The translations under genes were made by a program, and so were the position numbers. Positions 12,945-38,908 of a stretch of DNA of 64,000 nt are shown here, piece by piece. The stretch's first letter is position 1. Every line of letters starts with the position of its first letter. This stretch comes from Rhodothermales bacterium (GTDB lineage Bacteria > Bacteroidota > Rhodothermia > Rhodothermales > VXPQ01). The notes under the pieces were generated by a model. That model did not search any database, was not told the origin of the DNA, and worked only from the letters and a program-made list of their open reading frames with translations. Location of the stretch: NCBI GenBank assembly GCA_965117025.1, contig OZ220746.1:2357650-2421649 (forward strand). The letters run 5' to 3'.

Positions 12945-13205
12945 GGAGGGTAGCCGGAAAAGATCAGAGAGGAAGATGCAGAAAAAAGCCGGAAATACAG
13001 AAAATACAACTATGAAATATAACGCAAACGCAGCTGGATATGTATTTTATCGGTTACAAATAAAAGAAGCATGTCATGGAATGCGGAACCGATATTTGGG
13101 GTCTAATCATATGACCTTGGCGCCGCCATGGCTTTCGCCTGGAAATTTGCGCATCGACGAAACAGGATATATCGGGCAATCTTTTTCCTTGAAACTGTGG
13201 TCTCC

Positions 13206-17752: not shown

Positions 17753-18280
17753 CTATTCTTCCTCTTCTTCGGGTTGGCGTTGGCCGAGTTCACGGTCGAG
17801 CAGGAAAAGGCTGGCGCCGGAATCGCCGACGAGGCGCAGGTCGTCGATGATGTCGCGGGCGGATTCTTCCTCTTCTATCTGTTCGTCGACAAACCATTGC
17901 AGCAGCGTCTGCGAGGCATAATCGCGTTCTTTGCTTGAGAGCGCGTAGAGGTCGTTGATGCGCCGGGTGATGTACTGTTCGTGCTTCAGGACGAGTTCGA
18001 AGATTTCGAGGGGCGTCTCGGCTTCGTATACCGGCATCGGCAGTGCCTTCAACTGCACGACCCCATCGCGCTGGAGAAGATAATCGTAGAACTTGAGGGC
18101 GTGCTGTGTTTCTTCCTGCCACTGCAAACGCAGCCAGTGCGCAAAGCCCTTGAGGTTGAGTTGCTCCATGCGCGCTGCCAAAGCCAGGTACAGATAGGCG
18201 GATTCCAATTCAGCCTGGATCTGATCGTTGATGGCGTCCTGCATGGTTTGGCTGATCGAAGACGATTTCGTTGTTTGCAT
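17753..18280 (-). CDS. Ferritin (non-heme, Ftn-type)
   Basis: Ferritin-like di-iron motifs (INDQIQAELESAYLYLALAARM, QEETQHALKFYDYLLQRDG, LEIFELVLKHEQYIT). Acidic tail PEEEEE. Confidence 0.85.
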   Translation of the reverse strand: MQTTKSSSISQTMQDAINDQIQAELESAYLYLALAARMEQLNLKGFAHWLRLQWQEETQHALKFYDYLLQRDGVVQLKALPMPVYEAETPLEIFELVLKHEQYITRRINDLYALSSKERDYASQTLLQWFVDEQIEEEESARDIIDDLRLVGDSGASLFLLDRELGQRQPEEEEE

Positions 18281-18567: not shown

Positions 18568-18795
18568 ATGGCGCCCCTGACCAGCTTCGGCAACGGCAGC
18601 GATATCGAACTGGCCTTTTTAGGCCTTGAGCCGGCCACTGCACAGCGTGTGCGCGAACTGGGCCTGCGCGAAGGAGCGCACGTCGCCATCCTGCAAAACT
18701 CCGACAAGTTGATTGTTCGCGTGTCCGGGAGCCGCATCGGCCTTCGGCGCGAACTGGCCATGCGCATCTTCGGAAGTCCGGCCGTCGCGTTATGA
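18568..18795 (+). CDS. feoA: FeoA domain protein (first of two)
   Basis: 75 aa with an SH3-like FeoA pattern (RVRELGLREGAHVAILQNSDKLIVRVSGSRIGLRRELAMRIF). Overlaps the next feoA by 4 nt (ATGA). Confidence 0.8.
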   Translation: MAPLTSFGNGSDIELAFLGLEPATAQRVRELGLREGAHVAILQNSDKLIVRVSGSRIGLRRELAMRIFGSPAVAL

Positions 18796-19013
18796 CACTG
18801 AAAGAACTTGAGCCCGGACAGTGTGGTATCGTGACCGGCTTTGCAGGTCCTGACCCGCCCGACCGTCTGTTGGAGATGGGCCTGTTGTCCGGTACGCGTG
18901 TCGAAGTCGTACGGTATGCTCCACTGGGTGATCCCATAGACCTGAAAGTGCGCGGATATCACCTCTCGATCCGCAAGCATGAAGCTGCGATGATCCGCGT
19001 TGAGCGAGCATGA
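18792..19013 (+). CDS. feoA: FeoA domain protein (second of two)
   Basis: Classical FeoA sequence (LKELEPGQCGIVTGF...RLLEMGLLSGTRVEVVRYAPLGDPIDLKVRGYHLSIRKHEAAMIRVE). Confidence 0.8.
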   Translation: MTLKELEPGQCGIVTGFAGPDPPDRLLEMGLLSGTRVEVVRYAPLGDPIDLKVRGYHLSIRKHEAAMIRVERA

Positions 19014-19111
19014 GCCTGTCCGTAAAGGATGGTGGGGTGAGGAGAAGATAGCCGACATCCGGCATTTGCAATTTTCTGGTTCAATATCCCGATCCGGGGT
19101 TATCATTTCCG

Positions 19112-21511
19112 ATGGTCGAACCTGAGCCGGTCCCTCCACTGACGGATACGCCGCCCGACTTGCGCCGGGTTGCCCTGATCGGCAATCCCAATGTCGGCAA
19201 GACGACGGTATTCAATCTATTGACGGGTCGGCGTCAGAAAGTGGCCAATTACCCCGGCGTCACCGTCGAGCGCAAGAGCGGGCGGCTTATCGGGGCGGAG
19301 ACCGTCGAAGTAGTCGATCTGCCGGGGACATACAGTCTCAATCCCAGGTCGCTCGACGAGCAGATCGCCTACGACATGCTCGTGGGACGCATTGAGGGGG
19401 AGACGCCGCCCGATCTGGTCGTTTGCGTGGTGGATGCCACCAACCTGGAGCGCAACCTGTATCTGGTTTCGCAGGTGATGGACCTGGGTCTTCCGGTCAT
19501 CGTGGCGCTGAATATGATGGATACCGTGCGGGAGAGTGATCTGTCGATTGATGCGGAAGCGCTCGGTAAAGCATTGGGTCTCCCGATCGTTCCGATGGCG
19601 GCGCTTCACAAAGAAGGCGTTGATGCGCTGCGTCGCACCATTCTGGATATTCCTTCACCTGCGCCGGCGCAGCGCTGGACGCTGATGCCTGCTGTTGCGG
19701 CGCATGTGGGGCCGCTGTGCGAAATACTTGCCGAGCATGTCCCCGATCTTCCCGAAAATCATCGTTTCAACGAGGTCCTGCACGCGCTTGTCAACGAGAA
19801 GGCCATGGCGTACTGGGCGATACGCGCCCCGGCGTTTCATGCAGCGGTGCTGGCGGTACAGGAAACCCTGGAGGCGCGCAAGGCGCCTTATCGCCAGGCG
19901 GAGATCACGGGACGCTATACATGGCTCGGCCCCATTGTTGCGCAAGTGACGGCACGGCACAAGGCCTCCTCGAAAAAGACATGGTCGGACCGTTTCGATG
20001 CGGTGCTGACACATCGGATATTCGGCCTCCCGATATTTCTTGCCGTTCTCGTGATTGTTTTCCAGGCGGTCTTTTCCTGGGCCGTTCCGGCCATGGACCT
20101 GATCGAAGCGGCAGTGGCGGGACTGGGCTCCCTGGTGCGAAACACGTTGCCCGGCGGCGTTTTTACGGACCTCTTGGTTGAGGGGGCCATCGCGGGAGTG
20201 GGCAATGTCCTGATTTTTCTGCCGCAAATCCTGCTGCTTTTTTTCTTCATCGGACTGATGGAGGATTCCGGCTACATGGCCCGCACGGCGTTCATCATGG
20301 ACCGGCTGATGAAGAGGGTGGGGCTCAGCGGCGGTTCGGTGGTGCCCCTGTTGAGCAGTTTCGCATGCGCTATTCCCGGCATCATGGCGGCCCGGACGCT
20401 CGATAACGAACGCGACCGGATTATCACGATCATGGTTGCCCCGCTGATGAGTTGCTCGGCGCGTTTGCCGGTCTATACCCTGTTCATCGCCGCCTTTATT
20501 CCGGCGGGCAAACTCTTCGGGGTTTTCGGCTACCAGGGCCTGACGATGTTCACGATGTACCTTATGGGCACCCTGACCGCTTTCGTAGCGGCCTGGATCC
20601 TGAAACGATACGTTTTCAAAGGCTCGGCGTCTTTCTTTGCCATGGAGTTGCCGCCGTACCGGCGGCCGAAGATGCGATACCTCTTCTGGCGAATGATCGC
20701 ACGGTCGAAGATATTCGTTTATCGTGCAGGAAAGATCATCTTTCTGCTGAGCATCGTGCTCTGGTTTTTGGCCAGTTATCCCAAAGCGCAGCTCGGCCCG
20801 GACCTGTTGGCGCAACGGACGGCTATCGAGACCCGACATCAGGACGCATACGATCGGATCGCGGGGCAGGAAGGTATGCCCATCCCCGACTTGCTTGCTC
20901 AGCCTCCCGTTGCCGAGGCGATGCGTTTTCTCTCGGCGGATCCCGAAAACGATCCCGAAGCCGGGGCGGCCTTCGACGCCTTGCGCAATCAATACCCCGG
21001 TCAGGTTGCCAACGCCCAGGCGCTGTACGAGGCGCAGCAGGAATACGAAGACGATTTAGCTCGTCTGGCCGATGCCGAAGCCGGTTACCTGATCCGCCAC
21101 AGCTTCATCGGCCGGTTTGGCCGCGCATTAGAGCCCGTCATGCAACCCCTCGGCTTCGACTGGAAGATCACCGCGGGCATCATTGCGGCGTTTGCCGCGC
21201 GCGAAGTCATCGTCAGCACGCTTGCCACGCTCTACAGTGTCAGCGACGCCGATGAGACAAGCCCTGTCCTGCGCGATTACCTCAAAGCCGACCGTTATCC
21301 GGACGGACGGCCTGTTTTTACGCCGCTGGTGGCGCTGAGCCTGCTGGTGTTCTTCGTGTTTGCGCTGCAATGCATGAGTACGCTTGCCATTGCCCGGCGC
21401 GAGACGAACACATGGCGCTGGCCGGTGGTCATGTGGCTATACATGACAGGGCTTGCCTACCTGTGCTCACTTATCGTCTACCAGGGCGGCCTGATGCTGG
21501 GGCTGAGCTGA
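19112..21511 (+). CDS. feoB: Ferrous iron transporter FeoB
   Basis: N-terminal G-domain (VALIGNPNVGKTTVFNLLTG, DLPGTYSL, NMMD) followed by a polytopic membrane domain. 799 aa. Confidence 0.95.
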   Translation: MVEPEPVPPLTDTPPDLRRVALIGNPNVGKTTVFNLLTGRRQKVANYPGVTVERKSGRLIGAETVEVVDLPGTYSLNPRSLDEQIAYDMLVGRIEGETPPDLVVCVVDATNLERNLYLVSQVMDLGLPVIVALNMMDTVRESDLSIDAEALGKALGLPIVPMAALHKEGVDALRRTILDIPSPAPAQRWTLMPAVAAHVGPLCEILAEHVPDLPENHRFNEVLHALVNEKAMAYWAIRAPAFHAAVLAVQETLEARKAPYRQAEITGRYTWLGPIVAQVTARHKASSKKTWSDRFDAVLTHRIFGLPIFLAVLVIVFQAVFSWAVPAMDLIEAAVAGLGSLVRNTLPGGVFTDLLVEGAIAGVGNVLIFLPQILLLFFFIGLMEDSGYMARTAFIMDRLMKRVGLSGGSVVPLLSSFACAIPGIMAARTLDNERDRIITIMVAPLMSCSARLPVYTLFIAAFIPAGKLFGVFGYQGLTMFTMYLMGTLTAFVAAWILKRYVFKGSASFFAMELPPYRRPKMRYLFWRMIARSKIFVYRAGKIIFLLSIVLWFLASYPKAQLGPDLLAQRTAIETRHQDAYDRIAGQEGMPIPDLLAQPPVAEAMRFLSADPENDPEAGAAFDALRNQYPGQVANAQALYEAQQEYEDDLARLADAEAGYLIRHSFIGRFGRALEPVMQPLGFDWKITAGIIAAFAAREVIVSTLATLYSVSDADETSPVLRDYLKADRYPDGRPVFTPLVALSLLVFFVFALQCMSTLAIARRETNTWRWPVVMWLYMTGLAYLCSLIVYQGGLMLGLS

Positions 21512-21527
21512 GGCCGCCGAAGCCGTT

Positions 21528-23183
21528 TCAAGGCCCGGATACGACGATTTCCGTCGTTGCAAGCGGTATGCCGGATATGTCCGACATGGCATCGTAGAAT
21601 TCGACGAATCGATTGGTTTCGGGCGCGTCGTAGTCCTTCAGGTTATGGGCCCACCGGTAGCCGATCGGCTGATACCAGAGCGAGGCCTGCATGGTAAAGG
21701 GGCCTTGCTGTCCGCTCACATCGACGATATAGCGTACGGTGTCGGTTCCTCCCGCAAAATCGATGTCCTCCCTTGCCCGTCCATGGACTGCTATATCCTC
21801 GGATGCGGACGCTTTGTCGAACCCTCTCGGCAACAGTCGATTGTCCTTGATGTACCGCACTCCCTGCAAAAGTCCCGTCGTCACCAGACCCTGTGTATCG
21901 ACCATTACGGACTCGTAGATCTGCACCTGATCGCTTTGCGTGATTTCCTGATAATGGGGTTCGTAGCGTGCCGGATCCGTGTCGTTGTCGTTTCCCGGAA
22001 TTTCGCCCGTGGACCGGATCCCGCCGGATTCGAAAACAGGCGTCCCGTTCCGGTCGCGCACCGTAAAATGAATCCAGCTTCTGCGGGAGGGATACCCCGT
22101 CGGAAGTTTATGCCCGGCCAGGTTTTCAAGACGAACCTCGACGTGCAATGCATCTTGCACCCGTTCGGCGTTTTCTATCGAGATACGCGCGGTCCTGGTT
22201 TGTAAATGCTGCTCGGTTTGTCGGGCCGTGGCCTCCAGTTCGTTCGGGAGGGCTTCTACGCCCAGTTCGGCCCGGTACCGGTTGAGCATGCGGAGCATAA
22301 AGAAGTTGCCTCCCTGAAATACATGCCGGGAAACACCGGTTCGCCCCTCACCCAATACGGAGGAGATGGTTGTGGTATCCTCCACGACAGGCATGTGGCA
22401 GGACTGACAACTTTGTTCTTCGCGGTAGGCGCTGTGGAGCCATTCCAGATACGGGACTTGCTCGGGCAGTTCGCCTGCAATCTCTCCCGTGGGCCCGATC
22501 GCTTCCGTAAACAGGGTATGGCATGTCGCGCATAGTTCGGACTTTTGAATATGAAGCGATTCCACTTGCCGGAACCCCGATGCGGAATGCATCACGGTTC
22601 GGCGGCCTGTGTCCACTTCATAGGGCCCGAAAATGGCGCGTTGTTCGATCGGTGTCTCCGTATCGATCACGAATCCGGCCGTAAAACTTTCTCTGGCGCC
22701 CAGATTATCGGCGGTAATCTGGTGGCATACGGTGCAGGAAACGCCATCGGCGGCCAGATCGTCGGTGCGGTGTGTCTTTTCCCCGACCGGCAGATGAGAA
22801 AAGACCTGCCCTTGTTTGTCCGCAGCCTTTGCCTCAAAGCGGGACATGGGCATATGGCAGGCGGCGCACTCGTCTTCGATGCGGGCCTGCGCCCCCGGAT
22901 GATCCATCGTTTCCCGCCGCACTGCGGCCTGCCAATACGGATCGCGGGCCGAATTGGCCATCATGGAAGCGCGCCAGTCCGTGCCGATCGAGATGTCCTC
23001 GCCGGAAGGGGTAATCAGATTGCTATGACAACTTATGCACGCGGCGCCGGTCGCGAACAGGTGCGGGTCCGTTTCGGAAGAAGCCGTGTCCGGCGCCTGC
23101 GGGGGCACGGAGAAGAACAGCGGATGAACGAATGCCAATCCTGCCGAAGCAACAAGAATTACCAGAAGCAGCTTTCCGCTCAT
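21528..23183 (-). CDS. Secreted pentaheme c-type cytochrome with a ~290-aa heme-free C-terminal domain
   Basis: Signal peptide MSGKLLLVILVASAGLAFV. Five CxxCH motifs (CISCH, CAACH, CTVCH, CATCH, CQSCH), all in the first ~260 aa. C-terminal region has LENLAGHKLPTGYPSRRSWIHFTVRDRNG. Sits 26 nt downstream of the cytochrome-barrel gene. Confidence 0.85.
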   Translation of the reverse strand: MSGKLLLVILVASAGLAFVHPLFFSVPPQAPDTASSETDPHLFATGAACISCHSNLITPSGEDISIGTDWRASMMANSARDPYWQAAVRRETMDHPGAQARIEDECAACHMPMSRFEAKAADKQGQVFSHLPVGEKTHRTDDLAADGVSCTVCHQITADNLGARESFTAGFVIDTETPIEQRAIFGPYEVDTGRRTVMHSASGFRQVESLHIQKSELCATCHTLFTEAIGPTGEIAGELPEQVPYLEWLHSAYREEQSCQSCHMPVVEDTTTISSVLGEGRTGVSRHVFQGGNFFMLRMLNRYRAELGVEALPNELEATARQTEQHLQTRTARISIENAERVQDALHVEVRLENLAGHKLPTGYPSRRSWIHFTVRDRNGTPVFESGGIRSTGEIPGNDNDTDPARYEPHYQEITQSDQVQIYESVMVDTQGLVTTGLLQGVRYIKDNRLLPRGFDKASASEDIAVHGRAREDIDFAGGTDTVRYIVDVSGQQGPFTMQASLWYQPIGYRWAHNLKDYDAPETNRFVEFYDAMSDISGIPLATTEIVVSGP

Positions 23184-23209
23184 GGGTACATTTTCCGGTC
23201 AGATACAGG

Positions 23210-24514
23210 TTACCAGCCCTCGAAAAAACCTCCGTCGAACCATTCCCACAACAGATAGACTATAAATTGCGCATCGCGGGCGTACTGATCTGCGGGAATA
23301 CGGAGTCCGATGTTGAGCATCACGTGCTGCCGCCGGTTCAGGGTGATTTGCGCCTGGGGCACGATATCCCAATGCAAAACGCCCTCCGCCCCCAGAGGAC
23401 GGGTTCCGAGTACTTCCAGCATGGGCGACCAGGTGCGCCCCCAGTTTCCCTGCGTGAAGCTTTTGCCTGCCACGCCGCGAAAAAAAGCCTCGTCCGCCGC
23501 TGCATTCCGATCCAGGGGGAGTTCGAAACCACCCTGAAATTGCAGAAAAGCGTCCGCAGGCAGAATCTGCCCGTACGAAGCAAAGGGTTCGATGCGCGTC
23601 AGACCTTTTCCTATGCCCCTGTTTTTGCGCCCCGTGGGCAGAATCACTTCGCCCCCGAGACTAAGTATGCTGCCATGCGACAAGCTCTGGAGCATGACGC
23701 GTTTCAAACCGAGCGCTACATCCCCGAGTTGCCCGCCTTGCCTATGCTCCTCGAAGCCGAACGGTACGACCACCTCGAACTGATTGCGCGCGCCGAATCG
23801 TTTTTCATAGAGCAGTTCATGGAGAATGGCGCCCCTGCTGGCTACGATATCGACCGTGGTCGTCAGCACCGCCTCGTCTTCCGGAAACGCTTTTTCGGTC
23901 ACCAGGGGGCGCGGCGTATTCAATTCGCCTCTCGGCCATTCGTCGTCCGGGCACAGGGTGCGAATGTGATCCAGTATCTTTTGCAGTTCGTCCTGCGTCA
24001 GCGCATCGCCAAAGGCCGGCATCTCCCGGGCGAACCCGCGCACGGGCCCTCCTTGATGGGCCACCGCAAGCCAGTCCGCGTCGGGTTCGCGGGTGGCGAA
24101 GTTGCAGTCGGTGAAATCGGGAAGCGGAATATCGAACCCCAGTAAGGCCGCGGGAGCGCCTCTGCCGTCTGCGCCATGACAGGTTGCACAGGCCTTTCTG
24201 TAGAGTTCCTCGCCGGTATCGTTCGTCCGCGCAGGGCCGTATCTGACTTGCTCTGCGATGCCGCTGCGCTGCAACGTTTCGTTTGTACGCCTGGGCCCGG
24301 GTTGCATTGGCCCCTGACAGGTTGCGGGAGGCGCCCCGGCGCTATGCACATCGTCCGGACCGACCGGATTGCCGGCGGCATGGACGAATGCCGAAACATG
24401 ACGGCTTTCCGGCTCATAAGCCCCGAACGCACCGGTCGATCCCATGCCGCACCCAAGCACGAGCAGGGCCAGTGCATGACCGGATCGGCGCAAGTACCAG
24501 CAGGGATATTTCAT
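23210..24514 (-). CDS. Monoheme cytochrome c domain fused to a putative outer-membrane beta-barrel
   Basis: ORF 23210..24652 trimmed to ATG 24514 (MKYPCWYLRRSGHALALLVLGCG). Single CATCH in a class-I-like block (EELYRKACATCHGADGRG ... EMPAFGDALTQDELQKILDHIRTL). The last ~230 aa have short alternating strands (FEVVVPFGF, VALGLKRVML, ILSLGGEVILP, AFLQFQGGFELPL) and an aromatic terminus ...WFDGGFFEGW. Confidence 0.7.
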   Translation of the reverse strand: MKYPCWYLRRSGHALALLVLGCGMGSTGAFGAYEPESRHVSAFVHAAGNPVGPDDVHSAGAPPATCQGPMQPGPRRTNETLQRSGIAEQVRYGPARTNDTGEELYRKACATCHGADGRGAPAALLGFDIPLPDFTDCNFATREPDADWLAVAHQGGPVRGFAREMPAFGDALTQDELQKILDHIRTLCPDDEWPRGELNTPRPLVTEKAFPEDEAVLTTTVDIVASRGAILHELLYEKRFGARNQFEVVVPFGFEEHRQGGQLGDVALGLKRVMLQSLSHGSILSLGGEVILPTGRKNRGIGKGLTRIEPFASYGQILPADAFLQFQGGFELPLDRNAAADEAFFRGVAGKSFTQGNWGRTWSPMLEVLGTRPLGAEGVLHWDIVPQAQITLNRRQHVMLNIGLRIPADQYARDAQFIVYLLWEWFDGGFFEGW

Positions 24515-24830
24515 GCGCTTTCGGGGGATGTCCCTTTTTTCTACGGCCGGGATCGCTCCACGATATAGCGTCCGCTTGCCCGGACCGTACATATCCTTTC
24601 CAAACATACGAGCCGGGTGATGGTTTGTCCAATGAAGCCGGATATTTTCCATGTGTGTGAACCAATGATTGCACAGCGGATGTCCTTTGGAACCTGCTGA
24701 AGAAGATTTCCTTCGATGGGATCAAAGCCCGGCTGATCGGTTCAGCAATCCGAATCCGATCCACGGAGGTTTCAGGAACATTCCCGTTTGCATACCGCTC
24801 CCCGGCCTGCTAATTTTCCGAAAATGCCAT

Positions 24831-24861
24831 CCGCCGGTGTTTTTGCGGCGGTTATCTTTTT
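24831..24861 (+). promoter_or_regulatory. Terminator-like hairpin in the thiO 5' leader (candidate attenuator)
   Basis: CCGCCG-GTGTTTTTG-CGGCGG followed by TTATCTTTTT, ending 18 nt before the thiO ATG. No upstream same-strand gene exists for it to terminate. Confidence 0.4.
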
Positions 24862-24878
24862 CCGCGCGTTGTTTTCTC

Positions 24879-26030
24879 ATGCCCGATTCTGTGAAAACAC
24901 CTCCTTCTGACAGATCCGTGCTCATTGTCGGCGGCGGCGTGGCGGGGCTTGCGCTGGGTTGGCGCTTGCTGCATGCCGGTCGGTCCGTACATCTTTTCGA
25001 GCGGGATCAAGCCGGGCGCGGGGCTTCCTGGGCGGCGGCAGGCATGCTGGCGCCGGATGCGGAAATCGGGTTCGAGGACCCGGAACTCTACCGGCTCAAC
25101 CGAGAAAGCCTGCGGAGATGGCCGGCGTTTGCGGCAGCGCTTGAAGCGGAAAGCGGAATCGGGACGGGGTTTCGGGTCGGAGGGGCCGTGCATGTGGCTG
25201 CCGACCGGGACGAGGCGGAAGCCCTCCGCCGCCGCTACGATTTTATGAAGGCGCAGGGCTTGGACATCCGGTGGCTGTCGCCGGCAGAGGCGCTGGATAT
25301 AGAACCGTTTATCACGTCCCGACCGGCGGCGGTGATGTATTCTCCTTCGGATAGCCAGGTGGATAGCCGCGCGCTGGTCGAAGCGTTGCAGACTTCTTTT
25401 CTGAAGGCCGGGGGCACGCTGCGCGAAGGGACCGCTGTGCGCGCTGTCGAACCCGATGCGCGGACTCCCGCCGTCATGACGGAACACGGCGAGCGGGTCG
25501 AGGGATCGTGCGTGGTGCTTGCCACGGGCGCCTGGTCGCATGGCATGGAAGGACTGACGGCGGATCAGCGGCCGCCTGTACGTCCGGTGCGCGGGCAGAT
25601 GATGGAATTGGAGGCCGAGCCTCCGTTCGACTTGCAGCATGTCGTACGGAGTGCGCATATGTGCGTGGTGCCCAAGCCGGGCGGACGGGTGCTTGTCGGC
25701 ACCACGATGGAGGAAATGGGCTTCGATGCGCGCGTTACGGCGGGCGGGTTGTACACTATCCTGGAGGAGGCGCGCAAAATCGTGCCGGGGATCGACGATC
25801 TCCCCGTGCGCGATATATGGGCGGGGCTTCGCCCGGCAAGCCGCGATCATTTACCCATTCTGGGCCCTTCCTCTGCACCCGGCGTAGTGATGACCACGGG
25901 TTTCTACCGGCACGGCATGCTGCTTGCCCCGGTCGCTTCCGAAGAAGTGGCGCAATACATTCTTACCGGAGAAACCTCTGCATGGATCGTCCCGTTTTTA
26001 CCGGGACGTTTCGAGGCGGTATCCGCGTGA
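24879..26030 (+). CDS. thiO: Glycine oxidase ThiO (FAD-dependent)
   Basis: ORF 24669..26030 trimmed to ATG 24879 (MPDSVKTPPSDRSVLIVGGGVAGLALGWRL = GxGxxG FAD fold; ASWAAAGMLAP). First gene of the thiS-thiG-thiE-thiD cluster. Confidence 0.85.
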   Translation: MPDSVKTPPSDRSVLIVGGGVAGLALGWRLLHAGRSVHLFERDQAGRGASWAAAGMLAPDAEIGFEDPELYRLNRESLRRWPAFAAALEAESGIGTGFRVGGAVHVAADRDEAEALRRRYDFMKAQGLDIRWLSPAEALDIEPFITSRPAAVMYSPSDSQVDSRALVEALQTSFLKAGGTLREGTAVRAVEPDARTPAVMTEHGERVEGSCVVLATGAWSHGMEGLTADQRPPVRPVRGQMMELEAEPPFDLQHVVRSAHMCVVPKPGGRVLVGTTMEEMGFDARVTAGGLYTILEEARKIVPGIDDLPVRDIWAGLRPASRDHLPILGPSSAPGVVMTTGFYRHGMLLAPVASEEVAQYILTGETSAWIVPFLPGRFEAVSA

Positions 26031-26080: not shown

Positions 26081-26208
26081 GCGCCGCTATGTACAAAGAC
26101 AGCGCACGGCATGCGCCGCCACACGAATACGCCGCACACACAGGCGGATGGACCATGTCTTCCGAATCTCTCATCGATGTGTTGATCAACGGGGAAACAC
26201 ATTCCGTG
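26081..26208 (+). repeat. Copy A of a duplicated segment (thiS leader plus first ~18 codons)
   Basis: Aligns by eye with 27195..27320, with most positions identical (gcgccgctatg...cgccgcaca.a.a.gcggatggaccatgtcttcc.aatctctcatcgat.tgttgatcaacgg). Confidence 0.85.
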
Positions 26209-26382
26209 CCGGCGCGGGCGACGGTGTCCGTACTGGTGCGGAAGATGGGGTTCGATCCGGCCGATGCGAAGGGCATGGCCGTGGCGGTCAACGATACGGT
26301 GGCGCCGAAGGGGACATGGGACCGCCATGCCATCCGGTCCGGCGACCGGATCGAGGTGATTGCTGCGCAACAGGGAGGATAG
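26155..26382 (+). CDS. thiS: Sulfur carrier protein ThiS
   Basis: 75 aa ([18 protein letters not shown]...[11 protein letters not shown]) with the C-terminal GG typical of ThiS. Lies inside listed ORF 25924..26382. Confidence 0.9.
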
Positions 26383-26384
26383 AT

Positions 26385-27173
26385 ATGACGGTGAACGGAC
26401 ACCCGGATGTACTGAAAATCGGCGACATGGCGTTGTCCTCCCGGCTGATCATGGGTACGAGCCGGTATCCGAATCCGCGGGTCATGCTGGACGCGCTCGA
26501 GGCGTCCGGCACGGAACTCGTCACCGTAGCGATCCGGCGCGTGAACCTGCAGGACACGTCGGGGGAACGCCTTCTGGAATTGCTCAAGCCGTATCGCTGT
26601 CTGCCCAACACCGCCGGATGCTATACGGCGAAAGAAGCGGTGCTGGTGGCGCAACTGGCCCGCGAAGCGCTGGAAACCCATCTGATCAAACTGGAGGTCA
26701 TCGGAGACGACGAAACGCTGCTTCCGGATGTCGAACAGTTGCTGCGGGCGGCGAAGGAACTCGTGGACGACGGCTTTTCCGTGATGGTCTATGCAAACGA
26801 CGATCCCATCACATGCCGCAAACTGGCCGATCTCGGGTGCGCTGCGATCATGCCGCTGGCCTCCCCGATAGGCAGCGGGCAGGGACTGGTGAACCCCTAC
26901 AATCTGGCGCTCATACGGGACATCATCCGCGATACTCCGCTGATCGTGGATGCCGGGATCGGCACGGCGAGCGATGCGGCGCGGGTGATGGAACTGGGCT
27001 ACGACGGGGTGCTTCTGAACACGGCGGTTTCCGATGCGCAGCATCCCGTGACGATGGCCTCCGCCATGCGCCGGGCCGTGGAGGCAGGGCGGCTGGCCTT
27101 TCTGTCCGGGCGTATGCCGCGCCGCACGTATGCACAGGCTTCGTCGCCTATGGAGGGGCGCATCGGCGAATAA
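26385..27173 (+). CDS. thiG: Thiazole synthase ThiG
   Basis: Starts 2 nt after thi[80 protein letters not shown]. Lies inside listed ORF 26079..27173. Confidence 0.95.
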
Positions 27174-27320
27174 CGCACAGGAGGCGTCGGAACCGCGCCG
27201 CTATGCACATACAGCGCCCGGCAGGCGCCACCACAAAAATACGCCGCACAAACAAGCGGATGGACCATGTCTTCCAAATCTCTCATCGATATGTTGATCA
27301 ACGGAAAAATGCTTTCCGTG
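27118..27320 (+). repeat. Junction segment: copy B (thiG 3' end plus trailer) directly followed by copy A' (thiS leader plus 5' codons)
   Basis: 27118..27192 matches 28881..28952. 27195..27320 matches 26081..26208. The A' part encodes MSSKSLIDMLINGKMLSV, compared with thi[19 protein letters not shown]. Confidence 0.85.
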
Positions 27321-28871
27321 ATGCGCCGCCTGCTCGCAGCGTGGCTCCTCGCGCTGAGCCTTCCGATCGCACTCGCTGCGCAGGAAAGACCGCCGAACAT
27401 CGTCTTCTTCATGGTCGACGATTTGGGCTGGAGCGATATCGGCGTCTTCGGCAGTTCGTTCTACGAGACGCCGAACATCGACCGACTTGCCGAGCAGGGC
27501 GTGCGCTTCACGAACGCCTACGCGGCGGCGCATGTCTGCTCGCCCACCCGCGCGGCGCTCATGACCGGCAAGTATCCGGCGCGCTTGCGCTTGACGGACT
27601 GGTTGCCCGGCCGCAGAGAACATGCCTTCGAGCAGATGCTGAGCGCCGAGAAGCTGGCCGCCCTCCCGCTTGAAGAGGTCACGCTGGCGGAGGCCTTCAA
27701 GGAGCACGGCTATCGCACGGCCATCTTCGGCAAGTGGCATCTCGGCACAGGCGAGGCGGGTCCGCTCCACCAGGGCTTCGATGTGCAAGCGCCCGATTTC
27801 CCCGGCTCGACCCCGCGCGGCGGCTACTTTCCGCCCTATCTGATGAAGGGCCTGACGGTCGAAGGAGAGGACGACGAGTACCTGACCGACCGTCTCGCCG
27901 GCTTCGCGGTCGAGTTCATCGAGCAAAGCAGCGAAGAGCCGTTCTTCCTCTACCTCTCGCACTTTTCGGTGCACGACCCGATCGAAGGACGCCCGGATCT
28001 GGTCACGAGGTATCGGGAGAAGCTGGCGCGAGCAGCGCCTTCTGATGGGCCGGCATTTCTCCTCGAGGGCAACCCGGACGATCCCGAGCCGCTCTCACGC
28101 GCCCAACTGGATTCTCTGCAGCAAGAGCCCTCGCATCGGGAGCACCGGGTGCTGCCCCAGCGTACGGTCCCGATCAAGCAACACCAGGACAACGTCGAGT
28201 TCGCGGCGATGGTCACCGCCGTCGACGAGAGCATGGGACGTGTGCTCCGCACCCTTGAGGAACTGGGGTTGACCGAGCACACGATCGTCGTTTTTTACTC
28301 GGACAACGGCGGCATGTCGGCGGCCAACTTCGGCAATCCCGCGAGAGTCGTCAATCCGGACTGGCTGGACGTCGCCTACTCGACCTCGAATCTGCCCCTG
28401 CGGGGAGCCAAGGGCTGGCTGTACGAAGGCGGCATCCGCGTGCCCCTCATCGTGCGCTGGCCGGGCGGGGGGCAGGTCGGCGCGATTCGCCACGAGCCGG
28501 TGATCAGCACGGACTTCTATCCGACCCTTCTCGAGATGGCCGGACTGCCCGCAAGGTCCGACCAGCACGTCGACGGCGTGAGCTTTGCCGCCGCGCTACA
28601 AGGCAGCGCGTTCGAACGCGATGCGATCTACTGGCACTTCCCGCACTACAGCAATCACGGTATGCAGAGTCCCGGCGGCGCCATTCGAGCCGGTCCCTAC
28701 AAACTGCTCGAGTACTTCGAGAACGGCACGGTGCAACTCTTCGATCTGGATAACGACCCTGGCGAGCAGCATGACCTGGCCGCCGGGCAGCCGGCGAAAG
28801 CCGCCGAGCTGCGCGCCCGGCTGCAAGCCTGGCGCGAGTCCGTGTCGGCTGCGATGCCGACGGCTCGTTGA
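27321..28871 (+). CDS. Sulfatase (formylglycine-dependent arylsulfatase family)
   Basis: ORF 27267..28871. The first 18 codons are thiS-derived, so the start is placed at ATG 27321 (MRRLLAAWLLALSLPIALAAQ signal). PNIVFFMVDDLGWSD and the active-site box CSPTRAALMTGK. Confidence 0.85.
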   Translation: MRRLLAAWLLALSLPIALAAQERPPNIVFFMVDDLGWSDIGVFGSSFYETPNIDRLAEQGVRFTNAYAAAHVCSPTRAALMTGKYPARLRLTDWLPGRREHAFEQMLSAEKLAALPLEEVTLAEAFKEHGYRTAIFGKWHLGTGEAGPLHQGFDVQAPDFPGSTPRGGYFPPYLMKGLTVEGEDDEYLTDRLAGFAVEFIEQSSEEPFFLYLSHFSVHDPIEGRPDLVTRYREKLARAAPSDGPAFLLEGNPDDPEPLSRAQLDSLQQEPSHREHRVLPQRTVPIKQHQDNVEFAAMVTAVDESMGRVLRTLEELGLTEHTIVVFYSDNGGMSAANFGNPARVVNPDWLDVAYSTSNLPLRGAKGWLYEGGIRVPLIVRWPGGGQVGAIRHEPVISTDFYPTLLEMAGLPARSDQHVDGVSFAAALQGSAFERDAIYWHFPHYSNHGMQSPGGAIRAGPYKLLEYFENGTVQLFDLDNDPGEQHDLAAGQPAKAAELRARLQAWRESVSAAMPTAR

Positions 28872-28952: not shown

Positions 28953-29694
28953 AAAGCACCGCACCGGAAGTGCATCCTCGTGGAGTTTGCCCCGGCTCAT
29001 TCTGATCGGGGACGGATTCACAGACCCCGAATGCGCCGACCGGATCGTCGAAGCCGTGAAAGCAGCATCCGGTTGTGTATTCGGAAGACCCTCCGATGAA
29101 GCGGTATCCGATCCTGTTCCTGAAAAAACTCCCGGACAGATCCTGTGGGTGCATTTACGGGATCGTGCGGCGTCCGCTGGTCTTTTCCGGGAATGCGCTG
29201 CCCGTTTAGTCGAACGTTTGCGGAATGCTTCTCCGTCGATTCTGCTTTCCGTAAACGGCCGGCCGGAGGTGGCTGAAGCCTTGCAGTGCGGCTACCATGC
29301 CGGGGTGCGGGATGCGCCGCCGGGGTTTTCGTGCGGGCCCCGGCAACCCTACGGCAGGTCGGCGCACAATCCCGACGAGGCCCGGGCCGCAATGGGGGGA
29401 GATCATCAGAATCATCCCCAATACCTTTTTTTCAGCCCCGTTTTCAATCCGCAGGGCAAGCCCGGGTATACCGGCGCGGGCATCGATGCGCTGCACGATT
29501 TTGTGCACTATGTCCAGGGACGCGTCCCTGTATATGCCCTGGGCGGCGTTACTCCCGAACGGGTAGGGCCTTGTCTTGACGCAGGGAGTTACGGCGTGGC
29601 TGTTTTATCCGGAATTATGCGGGCCGACCACCCCGAAAAAGCGGCCGGTGCCTATCTTAACGCCTTGCGCGCATATTTCGAGGATGTTTCATGA
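28924..29694 (+). CDS. thiE: Thiamine-phosphate synthase family protein (ThiE/TenI-type)
   Basis: TMP-TENI-like C-terminus (YLFFSPVFNPQGKPGYTGAGIDALHDFV...VPVYALGGVTPERVGPCLDAGSYGVAVLSGIM). The start is uncertain: ATG 28912 or 28924 both lie in the thiG-derived repeat. ThiE and TenI cannot be told apart by eye. Confidence 0.65.
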   Translation: MVDNAQEASEKHRTGSASSWSLPRLILIGDGFTDPECADRIVEAVKAASGCVFGRPSDEAVSDPVPEKTPGQILWVHLRDRAASAGLFRECAARLVERLRNASPSILLSVNGRPEVAEALQCGYHAGVRDAPPGFSCGPRQPYGRSAHNPDEARAAMGGDHQNHPQYLFFSPVFNPQGKPGYTGAGIDALHDFVHYVQGRVPVYALGGVTPERVGPCLDAGSYGVAVLSGIMRADHPEKAAGAYLNALRAYFEDVS

Positions 29695-30506
29695 ACGTGG
29701 CCCTTACCATTGCAGGCAGCGACTCCGGCGGCGGGGCCGGCATTCAGGCCGATATGAAGGCCATGCAGGCCCAGGGCGTGTTTGCAGCGAGCGTCGTAAC
29801 GGCAGTCACGGCGCAGAACACGCTGGCCGTGCTGGATGCTTTCGAGCTTCCGCCCGATCTGATCGCAAAGCAGATCGACGCGGTGTACGACGATTTTACG
29901 GTGGGCGCTACGAAGACGGGCATGCTTTCTTCCGCAGCGATCATTGAAATCGTGGCGGAAAAACTTCAGGAGCGCCAGATATCTCCGGTTGTGGTTGATC
30001 CGGTCATGATTTCCAAGAGCGGATTTCCGTTGTTGCGCGACGATGCGGTCGAGACGCTCCGGGAACGGCTTCTGCCGCTTGCCGCGTTGGTCACGCCCAA
30101 TGCGCACGAAGCCCGGCGCCTTACAGGGATCGAGATGGGTTCGGAGGAAGCCCAGCAGGAAGCCGCCGCGGCGATTCATGCCATGGGACCGAGGGCGGTT
30201 CTGGTCAAGGGGGGACATGTGGATGAGCCCGGCGATGCGGTGGATGTGCTGTACGACGGCAAGCGGATGCGTGCGTTTCGCGCGACTCGCATCGCAACGG
30301 GGCACACGCACGGAACGGGCTGCACCTATGCGTCCGCCATTGCTGCGAATCTGGCGCGCGGGTTTTCGCTTAAGGAATCCGTTGCGCGGGCCAAACGGTA
30401 TGTGACCGAAGCCATCCGGCACGCCCCGGCCATCGGACAGGGCCGCGGCCCCGTGAACCATTTTTACTTTCTGAAGCAGGTGGACGTCTTTCCCCCGGCG
30501 GAATAA
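29691..30506 (+). CDS. thiD: Hydroxymethylpyrimidine/phosphomethylpyrimidine kinase ThiD
   Basis: MNVALTIAGSDSGGGAGIQADMKAMQAQGVF..., VVVDPVMISKSG, HGTGCTYASAIAANLA. 4-nt overlap with the preceding gene. Confidence 0.9.
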   Translation: MNVALTIAGSDSGGGAGIQADMKAMQAQGVFAASVVTAVTAQNTLAVLDAFELPPDLIAKQIDAVYDDFTVGATKTGMLSSAAIIEIVAEKLQERQISPVVVDPVMISKSGFPLLRDDAVETLRERLLPLAALVTPNAHEARRLTGIEMGSEEAQQEAAAAIHAMGPRAVLVKGGHVDEPGDAVDVLYDGKRMRAFRATRIATGHTHGTGCTYASAIAANLARGFSLKESVARAKRYVTEAIRHAPAIGQGRGPVNHFYFLKQVDVFPPAE

Positions 30507-30635: not shown

Positions 30636-30773
<138 letters not shown>

Positions 30774-34872: not shown

Positions 34873-34936
34873 TTGTCGAAGAGAAAATTAACCCGAAAGC
34901 TCCCTGTAGTATTTGTATATAAGTATACAATTTCCC

Positions 34937-35438: not shown

Positions 35439-38400
35439 CTATTTTAGGAGTGTCATTCGGTGCGTACTGTGAAAATCGCCAGCCCGTATCCTGTAGAAGT
35501 AGACGCCGCTCGGAAGATTCCCGGCGTCGAAGCGAGCGCGGTGCGTGCCAGCGCGCAACTCCTCCTGGAGGAGACGAGTTACCTCTCTGCCCAGCACATC
35601 GTATACGATGAGTGATACCATCGCATCTTCCGGGAGATCGAAAAGTATCTCCGTAGAAGGATTGAAAGGATTGGGAAAATTTTGCCGGAGCGCATACGTT
35701 TCGGGAATATCCTGATCGGCCTCAAGCAAATCCGCATCCGATGAAAGCATTTCCTTGGTATCCGAGTTTTTCTTGCCGTTTGGATCCGTTGGACACGAAC
35801 CTTCCGTAGATGATAGAACACGTACCTCCCATTCACTTGAAACCACAGACTGCCGGGGAGAAGAACTGTCCATTACCTGGACCCGGATCTTGAAGTTTTC
35901 CCCGTTGTATCCCCCATAGTCAATGGTCCGGGTAGCTCCTACATTATTCCAGGCATTGCATTCAGGGGCTCTGGCTCGGTCACAGATTCGATAGGATGAC
36001 CAGGAATACGAATAAGGGGGCTTGCCGCCGGATGACGACGCAACGAAATGCCCGGTGGAGGTTCCGGAGTCAATACAAGTAGGCCCTGAAGCTGAGATGC
36101 GCAACTGAGATTTTTCCAGGTTCAACTGAAAAGATGGATCAACACTCCATACTTCATTCTGCTGGGTGAGTCTCACAAAGCCATAATTCAGATTAGCTGG
36201 CAGTTCCACATAGAAAGAATCGGCTTCGGTGATGGGAAAATGTAATATTCCCCCAGAAGCCGAATTGGCCGGATCAACATAATATTCGGCAGACCGCGCC
36301 GCGACAACATCCACAGTGCTACTGTCACGCAGCCAAGTATAATATTGCCATGCTCTATTACCTTCGCTAGGTAGGTCATTATTTTCTCGTGCACGCTTGT
36401 TAGGATCTCCTGCATTGGCATGAGGACGGATCAAGGCAACTGTAGTAAAATATTTTTTAGAATCTCCATTGGGAAGGCTATCATTACCACGCAGCACCAT
36501 TTTTTTTATAGGAATTCCGACACCTTTAGCAGAGCCAGAAATGTACGACTCTCTAATTTGATCTGATTGGATAACGTCGTAACGCATTCGTTCGACAGTA
36601 AAAGGTTGAATATAAAGCCTATGACTTGTATTATGTGAAGGTGACAAAGAATTTTCGGATATATAAAGATTAGTCCATTGTCGAGCGACAGCGTCTCCAG
36701 AATAAGTCACATCCAATACAGTATTCGAATTGCCGTGATAATACATTTTGTACCAATTTGTACGATTATCAACTCGACTAATTGCATTGATATCTACTAT
36801 ATAAGGGTATTCTTCATCGCGGATAAAAAGTACATTCCGATAGTATTTCCCGAAAACATGATATCCACTGGCTCCAAGATTTGTAATTGTTGCCTTGGCT
36901 TTCAGGCCTATTTGTGCGGAGAGTAAATCAATATTCTCGTGAGTTTGCCGGTATATTTCATTAATATCTTGATGTTCCGAATGTATACGATGACCACTAA
37001 GTCGATTATAGAACGGAGATCGGACACCGCCATTATTATTAGTCCACTGCGGTGCGTCTGGTGAAAGTGTCATCACATTGTGATCCGTATAATTATTCCA
37101 GGTACTTCGATCCCAAGCATCGGGGAAACCAGGATATGGCTTATCATAACCCGAATCGACGAGATACGAAAGATTGTCCACGTAATATAGCAGCTGCATC
37201 TGATCTCCCTGTTCGTGCCCTTCGCCTCTTTCAATGGCGTCACCACTCTCGCCGTTGAGCAGAATGTAATGTGTACGCCCACCTATTTCTCTTCTGATTA
37301 CAACCTCTTGGCGTGCGTAGTCTGACGCGGGGACATTGTTGCTGCCGCCATCGCCACTTTGTCTGTTTGCGAATGTGTTGCCGACAACTTCGTCGAGTGG
37401 ATTAGAAGACGGTATAGAGGCATTGGGGATAGCAATTTCAACAGGGTAGAGATCTTTTCGAAAAGCGGACGAGTTTATTTTTTTGCCGATCCAGGCAAAT
37501 TTATTTCCCACGGAACCCTCTCCATAAGCGCTACTCCAGCGAAGAGGACCGATGTTATACATAATATGCTTGTGCCCGTCGTCCAATGGAGGCGTTTTGC
37601 CGTCCGGTGTGGAAATATCGGCTAGCCAATGGAGCGGTCGCAGAAGCCAGTCTTCTCTGAACGGGTCGTTGAATTCGTAACTGTGGATGACTGGCCTCTG
37701 GCTGAGTGGGTGTCGGTCGTCGATGCGCAAGAGCAAACTGTTTATACGTGCAGCGTGCCAGAACGGAATAACCTTGCTAAGGGTGATATGGAGGTAATAG
37801 GGGCCTTCTGCCCAGAAGTGTTTGCCATTGTCGGTTTGGTAGTGCCAATACTTGTGCCGAAAGTTTGTACCGGCCTCTATACCGGCAGCCTCAAAGGCGC
37901 GCCTCAGAAATCTGCTCATGTCCGAACGTGTGTCCGACCAAGAAGAACCAAAAGGTATTGGCTCCTGCTGCCAAGCAAGCGTCGCATAGCCGATAGCCAA
38001 CTGCATCGCCAAGGCGGCGTTACCGGGCTCCCCATCATATCTATTCCATACAGCAATTCCCAACTTCTTAATATTATGCAATTCCTCCAACTTGTTAATC
38101 AAGATAGTGTACTCGTTTTTTAGATTAAATTTTTCACTTGATGACAGAAGGTTTGTTGAATTTCCGTTTGCATATTCGGCCGGATCATAATGCTTGTATG
38201 CATTTTCCAATGCCAGATAAAAATCCATAGCCCGGGCGACGCTTGTTACGGGCGTCGCCCAATGGACACCGTCGTCATGATGGTCAGTATTGATCATCCA
38301 ACTCGTTGTGTTCAGAAGGGCCGTGCGGAACGAATCCACAGCCGCGGATGCCGACGGAAGCGTCGGATTTAAAGTGGTGGGGTCATAATCGTTATTATCA

Positions 38401-38888
38401 AGTACGTACGCAACCAGCGCCACAAAGCCCCTCGACTGCAAGCGGACAGTGTTACTCGATATGTTTCCAAGGCTTGTCGAAGGTGATAGCGATTCGTTGG
38501 ATTTTTTAATAATCTTTTGAAAAATAGCTTTCATGGTTGAGTCAGCGCTGGGACTGTACACCTCTTCCAGTACCTGCTTAAGTCCATATCCTATATTGCA
38601 GTTGGTTTCACTGCTTTCAGTGCAGTCGAACCCGTTGAGGGATAGAGAAGGGTGTTTGATGGCGTGAGGAAGGTAACTGAGAAAGCGATCATTGCCCACC
38701 GTGTCGGGTGGCAGGCAGTCGATGACCACCGCTGTCTGGCTCTGCGCAATCGCAGGCTGAGCGGCAGAGGCGATCAGCAACAGCAAGAGCGCAGCGCTTC
38801 GCCCCGCGATGGCACAGCCGTGCCGTACGACGCATGCCGCCGCTGCGGGCGCAAGGAGAGCGTTTCTGATTACAGGGAAGAACTTCAT
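35439..38888 (-). CDS. Heparinase II/III-like (polysaccharide lyase-like) protein with an Ig-like domain and T9SS CTD
   Basis: ORF 35439..39050 trimmed to ATG 38888 (MKFFPVIRNALLAPAAAACV...AQPAIAQ). Toroid-like HFWAEGPYYLHITLSKVIPFWHAA. Hepar_II_III-like GEGHEQGDQMQLLYYVDNLSYLVDSGYD ... STWNNYTDHNVMTL. SprB/PKD-like SSGGKPPYSYSW. CTD: QNFPNPFNPSTEILFDLPEDAMVSLIVYDVLGREV...YFYRIRAGDFHSTHRMTLLK. Confidence 0.7.
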   Translation of the reverse strand: MKFFPVIRNALLAPAAAACVVRHGCAIAGRSAALLLLLIASAAQPAIAQSQTAVVIDCLPPDTVGNDRFLSYLPHAIKHPSLSLNGFDCTESSETNCNIGYGLKQVLEEVYSPSADSTMKAIFQKIIKKSNESLSPSTSLGNISSNTVRLQSRGFVALVAYVLDNNDYDPTTLNPTLPSASAAVDSFRTALLNTTSWMINTDHHDDGVHWATPVTSVARAMDFYLALENAYKHYDPAEYANGNSTNLLSSSEKFNLKNEYTILINKLEELHNIKKLGIAVWNRYDGEPGNAALAMQLAIGYATLAWQQEPIPFGSSWSDTRSDMSRFLRRAFEAAGIEAGTNFRHKYWHYQTDNGKHFWAEGPYYLHITLSKVIPFWHAARINSLLLRIDDRHPLSQRPVIHSYEFNDPFREDWLLRPLHWLADISTPDGKTPPLDDGHKHIMYNIGPLRWSSAYGEGSVGNKFAWIGKKINSSAFRKDLYPVEIAIPNASIPSSNPLDEVVGNTFANRQSGDGGSNNVPASDYARQEVVIRREIGGRTHYILLNGESGDAIERGEGHEQGDQMQLLYYVDNLSYLVDSGYDKPYPGFPDAWDRSTWNNYTDHNVMTLSPDAPQWTNNNGGVRSPFYNRLSGHRIHSEHQDINEIYRQTHENIDLLSAQIGLKAKATITNLGASGYHVFGKYYRNVLFIRDEEYPYIVDINAISRVDNRTNWYKMYYHGNSNTVLDVTYSGDAVARQWTNLYISENSLSPSHNTSHRLYIQPFTVERMRYDVIQSDQIRESYISGSAKGVGIPIKKMVLRGNDSLPNGDSKKYFTTVALIRPHANAGDPNKRARENNDLPSEGNRAWQYYTWLRDSSTVDVVAARSAEYYVDPANSASGGILHFPITEADSFYVELPANLNYGFVRLTQQNEVWSVDPSFQLNLEKSQLRISASGPTCIDSGTSTGHFVASSSGGKPPYSYSWSSYRICDRARAPECNAWNNVGATRTIDYGGYNGENFKIRVQVMDSSSPRQSVVSSEWEVRVLSSTEGSCPTDPNGKKNSDTKEMLSSDADLLEADQDIPETYALRQNFPNPFNPSTEILFDLPEDAMVSLIVYDVLGREVTRLLQEELRAGTHRARFDAGNLPSGVYFYRIRAGDFHSTHRMTLLK

Positions 38889-38908
38889 GGCTTGGGTACT
38901 TCTGTCTT

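Follow-up and report, generated by a model that had tools for sequence, protein, structure and literature searches.

What kind of redox module results when a class-I cytochrome c is built into the same polypeptide as an outer-membrane β-barrel, and what could it do together with the multiheme cytochrome that is encoded directly behind it? This question is raised by two adjacent genes on the minus strand of a 64,000-nt stretch of DNA from a Rhodothermales bacterium (contig OZ220746.1, positions 2,357,650 to 2,421,649), hereafter the window, whose closest relatives are Rhodothermales metagenome-assembled genomes. Gene A (23210..24514; 434 amino acids, aa) encodes, as judged from its open reading frame (ORF) and its homologues, a fusion of a monoheme cytochrome c with an outer-membrane barrel, and gene B (21528..23183; 551 aa), assigned from its ORF, an AlphaFold2 model and a fold match to 5ZE8, encodes a pentaheme cytochrome c of the PHC family. 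The two are separated by 26 nt, and no other ORF in the window that reaches 100 aa bears a CxxCH motif. A first interpretation based on the letters of the DNA alone (the sequence-only reading) had suggested that the pair could be a porin-cytochrome conduit across the outer membrane and may be linked to iron, judging from the neighbouring feo and ferritin genes. Here we describe A and B as a recurrent two-gene module and propose, at roughly even chances, that they form a redox pair tethered to the periplasmic side of the outer membrane, in which the barrel serves as an anchor and as a narrow solute gate.

The cytochrome-barrel fusion

The ORF of gene A spans 23210..24652 at most, and the ATG at 24514 was adopted in agreement with the N-termini of the closest homologues. 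From this start the protein opens with a signal peptide (aa 1-31, 24422..24514, MKYPCWYLRRSGHALALLVLGCGMGSTGAFG), for which a helix is predicted at aa 6-26 and an n-h-c pattern can be read; the lipobox-like cysteine context LVLGC within it is confined to the Rhodothermales clade of the window. A disordered spacer follows (aa 32-95, 24230..24421), with a predicted local distance difference test (pLDDT) below 50 in AlphaFold2, for which gene A was modelled from an alignment of 60 homologues and the models were computed without heme. This spacer is lineage-specific, an insert of about 65 aa that is limited to the closest Rhodothermales, and other homologues cover only about 77% of the query. The subsequent class-I cytochrome c domain (aa 96-187, 23954..24229) is recognised by Pfam both as PF13442 Cytochrome_CBB3 (E 1.6e-11 to 1.9e-11, aa 98-184) and as PF00034 Cytochrom_C (E 1.5e-07 to 1.7e-07, aa 100-187) and contains the sole heme motif of the protein, CATCH (24176..24190), which confirms the signal-like N-terminus and the single CATCH within a class-I block that had been noticed from the sequence. 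In the homologue alignment C109, C112, H113 and M165 of this domain are invariant, as is an extra pair, C137 and C188; M165 is likely the axial heme methionine, and a C137-C188 disulfide probably staples the domain. More than 4451 homologues of gene A were found at 90% clustering, and their public names are merely "c-type cytochrome" or "hypothetical protein," while a sequence search of the PDB with gene A returned generic cytochrome c domains only.

Behind the cytochrome domain lies a linker rich in proline and acidic residues (aa 188-213, 23876..23953, CPDDEWPRGELNTPRPLVTEKAFPED; delimited by alignment and AlphaFold2), which is near-invariant between phyla and is predicted to be coil, with a pLDDT of about 90 for aa 201-213. 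It leads into the outer-membrane β-barrel (aa 214-424, 23243..23875; AlphaFold2, Foldseek, PF13557), modelled as 12 β-strands with a pLDDT of about 90, and the protein terminates in an aromatic tail, WFDGGFFEGW, that together with the stop codon occupies 23210..23242 and is invariant in the alignment. The strands alternate between hydrophobic and polar residues, and long loops take turns with short ones, which is the pattern expected of a barrel whose strand 1 begins at the periplasmic face. The top matches of gene A in a Foldseek comparison with the PDB are all 12-stranded outer-membrane barrels, the best being FapF (E 1.3e-09), with the COG4313 channel Pput2725 (4RL8, E 2.3e-06) and then NanC, KdgM, the β-domains of invasin and intimin, and the autotransporter 9OQA among the others. 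Hence the barrel-like C-terminus ending in FFEGW, as the sequence-only reading had described it, corresponds over the last ~220 aa to a predicted 12-stranded barrel matching FapF and 4RL8, and not to a soluble fold. The Pfam model of the COG4313 family, PF13557, matches 52 of the 60 gene A family members (best E 2.2e-11), and the window's own gene A stays under the cut-off of this model (E 0.071; 13.6 bits vs 22).

The known FapF/COG4313 proteins (Pput2725, TcpY, SphA) resemble gene A in more than strand number. They share a conserved segment before strand 1, and a PTG motif placed directly after strand 5, at the base of the loop between strands 5 and 6 (PMC5557850), has its counterpart in gene A, where P293 and G295 do not vary among the 60 sequences and T294 is retained in 70% of them or more. 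FapF moreover carries an N-terminal domain whose periplasmic location has been tested (PMC5557850). The lumen of these barrels is about 10-12 Å wide and is occluded from the periplasmic side by the segment before strand 1 (PMC4493636, PMC5557850). The known members, however, are without a redox domain, whereas gene A always carries the fused cytochrome c in the full-length members checked, and the conserved lumen face of gene A is acidic instead of hydrophobic. This face was assigned from the polarity pattern of the strands, whose polar sides would line the lumen; among their conserved residues nine are acidic vs four basic, accompanied by M365 and M399, and H397 is found in an adjacent turn. 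Identity within the gene A family across Bacteroidota, Acidobacteriota and Gemmatimonadota amounts to 55-60%, which is unusually high for an outer-membrane protein.

The fusion itself appears in every full-length relative of the barrel that was checked. A phmmer search of 1.84 billion representative proteins with linker and barrel alone gave, at E ≤0.001, 682 clusters formed at 50% identity, and each full-length homologue checked contains a single CxxCH some 85 aa ahead of the WPRG linker. Barrel-only relatives lacking the cytochrome domain were considered and discarded, the short matches all starting at an internal "MPAFG" and representing truncated gene calls or contig ends. With a CxxCH in each full-length homologue checked and truncation behind the barrel-only matches, the cytochrome-barrel fusion can be taken as the defining architecture of the gene A family. 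No published description of such a fusion or of the A-B pair was found in a literature search that left most subscription journals outside its reach.

The pentaheme partner and its replacement

Gene B begins with a Sec-type signal peptide (aa 1-25, 23109..23183; helix at aa 5-15), which is followed by a heme-binding cap (22194..23054) delimited from the sequence and the AlphaFold2 model. Five CxxCH motifs are located in it at aa 49, 106, 150, 218, and 259, namely CISCH (23025..23039), CAACH (22854..22868), CTVCH (22722..22736), CATCH (22518..22532) and CQSCH (22395..22409), and about 290 aa without heme motifs come after them, so that the signal peptide, the five motifs, the heme-free domain and the 26-nt distance from gene A all stand as the sequence-only reading had given them. 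The ten cysteines and five histidines of these motifs are invariant in 63 homologues, and the protein has no cysteine beyond them. AlphaFold2 models gene B with a pLDDT of 81 and a predicted template modelling (TM) score of 0.83 as a helical heme cap joined to a β-rich C-terminal domain, and the latter (21528..22193; pLDDT 90-97) is an immunoglobulin-like β-sandwich stem that contains an invariant loop, GHKLPTGYPSRRSW (22074..22115, from the homologue alignment).

Only one significant fold match exists for gene B in the PDB, the penta-heme cytochrome c552 of Thermochromatium tepidum (5ZE8), with a Foldseek E-value of 5.5e-14 and a target-normalised TM-score of 0.65; a profile search gave a weak match to the same protein (E 2.9e-05). 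As 5ZE8 is its only significant structural match, gene B is regarded as a member of the PHC family of pentahemes, which comprises T. tepidum c552, Geobacter ExtKL/MccSep, Gsu2801 and the cable-bacteria pentahemes sPHC and lPHC and has a heme cap and an immunoglobulin-like stem in common (PMC11976967; bioRxiv 10.1101/2025.11.18.688581). The likeness extends to the five CxxCH in an N-terminal helical cap and to the C-terminal β-sandwich, although gene B is longer (551 aa vs the 435 aa of 5ZE8). Geobacter ExtKL has been shown to be the polysulfide reductase MccSep (bioRxiv 10.1101/2025.11.18.688581), and an MccSep-type enzyme was one candidate for gene B; it was ruled out, given that gene B has no additional cysteine or selenocysteine, neither as a heme ligand nor in the catalytic loop, and that the NCBIfam ExtKL model NF040886 scores 37 bits (E 1.5e-09) against a cut-off of 250. 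The gene B loop GHKLPTxYPSRRxW aligns with "PHAMPTGAP" of 5ZE8, and by analogy may be equivalent to the selenocysteine loop of MccSep beside heme 2 (bioRxiv 10.1101/2025.11.18.688581). Outside the heme motifs, H211, H287, H358, H410, H95, H130, and H250 are invariant or near-invariant, a number that suffices for five bis-His hemes and thus suggests a pure electron carrier. Homologues of gene B have plain n-h-c signal peptides of the Sec type, with a lipobox-like match in only two of 63, which makes a periplasmic protein, and not a lipoprotein, the most likely assignment. Neither A nor B matches any characterised respiratory enzyme family above threshold in Pfam or NCBIfam, a point on which the sequence-only reading is supported.

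The association of the two genes was followed in 80 related loci, the best-scoring subset of the gene A family, in which partners were detected by tblastn and simple ORF calling. A homologue of B lies immediately downstream of A on the same strand in 75 of them, spread over at least six phyla, and two of the five loci without B are contig ends; a recurrence in 75 of 80 loci is not expected by chance. Beyond the pair itself no neighbour is conserved among these loci, and all-vs-all clustering of their ORFs recovered A in 80 and B in 75, the next real family, a generic ABC ATPase, being present in only eight. The isolates Longibacter salinarum and Fodinibius sediminis likewise carry the pair alone among unrelated genes. 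Gene A relatives are encoded in at least 586 genomes when one genome per species is scanned, with hosts among Rhodothermales, Balneolaceae, Acidobacteriota, Gemmatimonadota, Longimicrobiales, Bradymonadales, Pirellulales, and Verrucomicrobiota.

In three Gemmatimonadota loci the position of B after A is taken by a different protein of about 230-270 aa (L053, 11093-11902; L048, ~11090-11898; L077, ~9890-10700), and the same holds for a distant locus (L086, 1302-1997) whose gene A homologue is 33-40% identical. This protein has a signal or anchor sequence, a cupredoxin-like H..C..H..M motif and a CarboxypepD_reg domain; in the PDB it shows weak matches to the cupredoxin domain of copper nitrite reductase (E 0.26) and to plastocyanin (E 0.53), and its cupredoxin part is not recognised by Pfam. 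The presence of a cupredoxin-like protein instead of B in some lineages implies that the module is centred on A, with an exchangeable electron carrier as the second component, and argues for a dedicated partner with which the heme domain of A transfers electrons.

Proposed position at the outer membrane and competing readings

In the arrangement that we favour, A and B would constitute a self-contained two-gene operon whose products hang as a redox module from the inner face of the outer membrane. The product of gene A would be exported by Sec, its 12-stranded COG4313/FapF-type barrel would insert into the outer membrane, and the 26-residue linker would be lodged within the barrel's periplasmic opening or right beside it, holding the His/Met class-I cytochrome c domain tight against this opening. 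A periplasmic cytochrome domain would be in line with standard barrel topology, and the linker (aa 188-213) may plug the lumen, by analogy with the segments that precede strand 1 in Pput2725 and FapF. The soluble periplasmic pentaheme B would swap electrons with the tethered cytochrome c, the cupredoxin-like protein substituting for it in some lineages, and the module would exchange electrons with the respiratory chain by way of the general electron carriers of the periplasm. The barrel would act as a narrow, gated and apparently acidic pore that gives a small soluble substrate access to the hemes, a metal cation (Fe2+, Mn2+) or a small inorganic species being the candidates. Established by the analysis are the domain identities, the prediction of a 12-strand barrel, the fold family of B, the conserved pairing and the lack of a conserved linkage to feo; a periplasmic heme domain, a linker that plugs the lumen, a functional pore, the way electrons flow and the nature of the substrate are what we infer from these elements.

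The size of the barrel separates this tethered pair from a heme conduit. In Mtr-type systems a porin of 26-28 strands sheathes a decaheme wire. MtrCAB, MtoAB, and PioAB resemble A-B in combining an outer-membrane barrel with multiheme cytochromes, but the 12-strand barrel of A would be unable to sheathe a heme protein, and B has five hemes and a different fold; the Pfam model of MtrC/MtrF domain II/IV, PF22113, reached 21.7 bits, under its cut-off of 30. Since the occluded lumen of about 10-12 Å seen in its relatives leaves no room for a cytochrome domain of 90 residues or for a wire of several hemes, A should be neither an Mtr-type conduit nor a Cyc2-type barrel with a heme plug. Electrons cannot cross some 35 Å of barrel without cofactors. 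The Mtr-type interpretation fails, and the sequence-only proposal of a porin-cytochrome conduit, taken with membrane-spanning hemes, is not supported, a barrel of the 12-stranded FapF/COG4313 type being too small for the ~90-aa cytochrome domain. As hemes could not span the membrane inside so narrow a barrel, it is better understood as an anchor and gated pore.

Several observations weigh against the tethered pair as described. The cytochrome domain of gene A is poorly modelled without heme (pLDDT 41-47 at aa 140-168 in AlphaFold2), and the position of the linker, whether as a plug or threaded through the pore, as well as the docking of the heme domain, are presumed. A mere tether would leave the strong conservation of the barrel, 55-60% identity across phyla, unexplained, and the acidic lumen residues could hold a plug via salt bridges instead of selecting cations. 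Two distant homologues of A have no co-directional partner. Nothing indicates the substrate of A-B, the 80 loci offering no conserved neighbour, and upstream of A no enrichment of the Fur consensus or of the FNR/CRP half-site pattern was detected in 76 loci and the window by a crude scan with E. coli consensus sequences, under which regulation is still possible.

Among the alternatives, a Cyc2-like outer-membrane metal oxidoreductase would oxidise or reduce Fe(II) or another metal ion, arriving in soluble form through the pore, at the heme of A, pass the electrons to B or the cupredoxin and be tied to iron handling; we consider it unlikely. Its appeal lies in the architecture, as Cyc2 too is a single polypeptide with one c-heme on the N-terminal side, a C-terminal outer-membrane barrel and a soluble periplasmic redox partner, cytochrome or cupredoxin, and A is a fused monoheme cytochrome and barrel with a dedicated multiheme or cupredoxin partner. 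Cyc2 passes its electrons to rusticyanin or Cyc1, and the cupredoxin variant of A-B parallels the Cyc2-rusticyanin couple. The acidic, Met-containing lumen face of A is also in keeping with such a function. However, the barrel of Cyc2 has about 16 strands and that of A has 12 and belongs to the PF13557/COG4313/FapF lineage, a distinction drawn from architecture, as the Pfam and NCBIfam libraries searched, which include no Cyc2 model, gave only generic cytochrome c domains. Furthermore, the heme of Cyc2 resides in a short N-terminal segment thought to plug the barrel (PMC5566968), whereas that of A resides in a full class-I domain of about 90 aa with a 26-aa linker before the barrel; this domain would be unable to fit the barrel and would thus keep the heme some 35 Å from the cell surface. 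The link to iron is the remaining argument for a Cyc2-like function. In the window the pair converges on feoB with a gap of 16 nt (21512..21527), at the end of a feoA-feoA-feoB cluster (18568..21511, plus strand), and ferritin (17753..18280) follows beyond the feo genes, as the sequence-only reading had noted and as coordinates, Pfam and NCBIfam agree; the pair also adjoins feoAAB in the closest relative. When the window's neighbours were searched by tblastn, feo adjoined A-B in only two of the 80 loci, both of the closest Rhodothermales relatives; feoB and feoA stand beside the pair in one (L001), and a feoB 3' remnant is all that is left in the other (L002). In L002 (12995-13863) both feoA genes and the bulk of feoB are gone, A-B is intact, and the remnant, matching residues 682-799 of feoB, abuts the ferritin gene, which looks like a recent deletion. 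Ferritin is near A-B in only two of the 80 loci, this one and L007. With feo beside A-B only in the two closest relatives, one of them without feoAB, an iron link drawn from adjacency is unsupported, and a functional tie of A-B to feo or ferritin was rejected. Of the two kinds of conservation by which the sequence-only reading could be checked, that of the gene pair holds (75 of 80 loci), whereas the linkage to feo does not (2 of 80), and the suggested link to iron is not supported in view of this adjacency, the deletion in L002 and the lack of Fur-box enrichment in the crude scan. Cultured hosts such as Fodinibius, Longibacter, and Rhodohalobacter are aerobic organoheterotrophs and are not known for iron redox metabolism, which is a further point against a Cyc2-like function. 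The broader proposal that fused cytochrome-barrel proteins arose a second time, independently, as the A family on a COG4313/FapF barrel, which would serve to oxidise or reduce a soluble metal ion such as Fe(II) or Mn(II) at the outer membrane and pass electrons to an exchangeable PHC or cupredoxin, is tentative and in our estimate rather improbable.

The fold of B leads to a different possibility, which we rate as unlikely, namely that B is a periplasmic multiheme enzyme acting on sulfur or another small or hydrophobic substrate imported by the A barrel, with the cytochrome of A as its electron partner. One PHC member, MccSep, is a proven enzyme (bioRxiv 10.1101/2025.11.18.688581), T. tepidum c552 has been suggested to take part in sulfur metabolism, and the GHKLPTxYPSRRxW loop of B may be placed where MccSep has its selenocysteine loop beside heme 2. 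COG4313 channels are implicated in the uptake of hydrophobic molecules (PMC4493636), and PHC genes recur beside outer-membrane barrels, as with extI and extKL (PMC11976967) and with ptdB and ptdA (bioRxiv 10.1101/2023.11.21.568154). Yet the absence from B of cysteine or selenocysteine outside the CxxCH motifs excludes MccSep-type chemistry, the conserved histidines are enough for five bis-His hemes and suggest a pure carrier, and the lumen face of A is polar and acidic instead of hydrophobic; the cupredoxin-like swap, too, suits an electron carrier better than a specific enzyme. Topology could also be reversed if A were autotransporter-like, with the cytochrome c as a surface-displayed passenger and the linker spanning the 12-stranded barrel, which we regard as very improbable. 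The type Va layout is indeed reproduced, from the signal peptide through an N-terminal domain and a linker to a 12-stranded barrel at the C-terminus, COG4313/FapF barrels resemble autotransporter barrels after cleavage (PMC4493636, PMC5557850), autotransporter 9OQA and intimin/invasin barrels are among the fold matches of A, and the 26-residue, Pro-rich, extended linker is long enough to cross the membrane. No Pfam autotransporter match exists, however, for A or its family members, the linker is predicted to be coil and not the helix typical of autotransporters, and the closest structural relatives keep their N-terminal domain periplasmic, a placement put to the test in the case of FapF (PMC5557850). 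Covalent heme attachment takes place in the periplasm, a 12-stranded pore would hardly let a folded holo-cytochrome through, and a heme at the surface would have no chain of cofactors leading back to periplasmic B.

The tethered pair also has to be set beside the Geobacter cluster extHIJKL and the proposed ptdABCDEFG operon, in which a PHC-type pentaheme gene is found next to an outer-membrane barrel gene and which have been proposed as porin-cytochrome systems (PMC11976967; bioRxiv 10.1101/2023.11.21.568154). Their barrels are separate porins without a heme domain, ExtI being much larger than the barrel of A, and their clusters hold further cytochromes and oxidoreductases, whereas A-B has only two conserved genes. 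In the ptd operon a flavin adenine dinucleotide (FAD) oxidoreductase, a tetraheme, a 4Fe-4S protein, a ferric-reductase-like protein and a decaheme come after the pentaheme and the porin, and none of this is matched by the neighbours of A-B, a separation made on gene content. The A-B module is therefore, by these differences, distinct from Cyc2, Mtr/Mto/Pio, MccSep, and the ptd operon, while its parts belong to known families.

In genomes, microbial iron cycling and extracellular electron transfer are recognised by Cyc2 and porin-cytochrome complexes as the standard markers, and the architecture of A-B differs from both. The module occurs in at least 586 genomes at species level, and metagenomes contribute thousands of its proteins from phyla that dominate soil, sediment, and saline habitats. 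If a metal or another inorganic substrate proved true, a large unrecognised set of organisms would join those cycles, and the PHC family would gain a second physiological context. A Cyc2-like function would place metal redox chemistry in abundant aerobic bacteria of soil, sediment, and saline habitats (Acidobacteriota, Gemmatimonadota, Rhodothermales/Balneolales) that are not counted as metal-cycling, and even a relay that is only tethered to the outer membrane would be a new use of the FapF/COG4313 barrel. As cultured hosts exist, including Fodinibius sediminis DSM 21194, Longibacter salinarum, and Rhodohalobacter spp., the module is open to experiment.

Other features of the window

No Rfam match lies near A or B. 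An ORF of 908 aa at 13128-15854 contains a long glycine-rich insert of low complexity (GGGPGGGGGGGGPGGGGGGNN) and is 81-89% identical in the two closest relatives. Across window positions 34000-38000 the G+C content is 0.46-0.49, compared to 0.55-0.63 in the rest of the window, and this region holds an ORF of 1203 aa (35439..39050, minus strand); it may have been acquired horizontally. A tRNA gene (30684-30757; Rfam, 66.5 bits) adjoins an ORF of 523 aa (30775-32346, minus strand), the C-terminus of which appears to resemble a type IX secretion sorting domain, consistent with a host from Bacteroidota/Rhodothermia.

An apparent thiamine cluster is composed of thiO-like (24669..26030), thiS/thiG-like (~26180..27173) and thiE/thiD-like (~29000..30506) ORFs, and a sulfatase ORF (27267..28871) lies within it. 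A direct repeat of 115 nt is found in this cluster, with copies at 26094-26208 and 27206-27320 that are 86% identical and 1112 nt apart, and no Rfam family matches it, the thiamine pyrophosphate (TPP) riboswitch included. The two copies span the starts of the thiS-like ORF and of the sulfatase ORF, and both ORFs open with a near-identical peptide, one copy of which is MSSKSLIDMLING.

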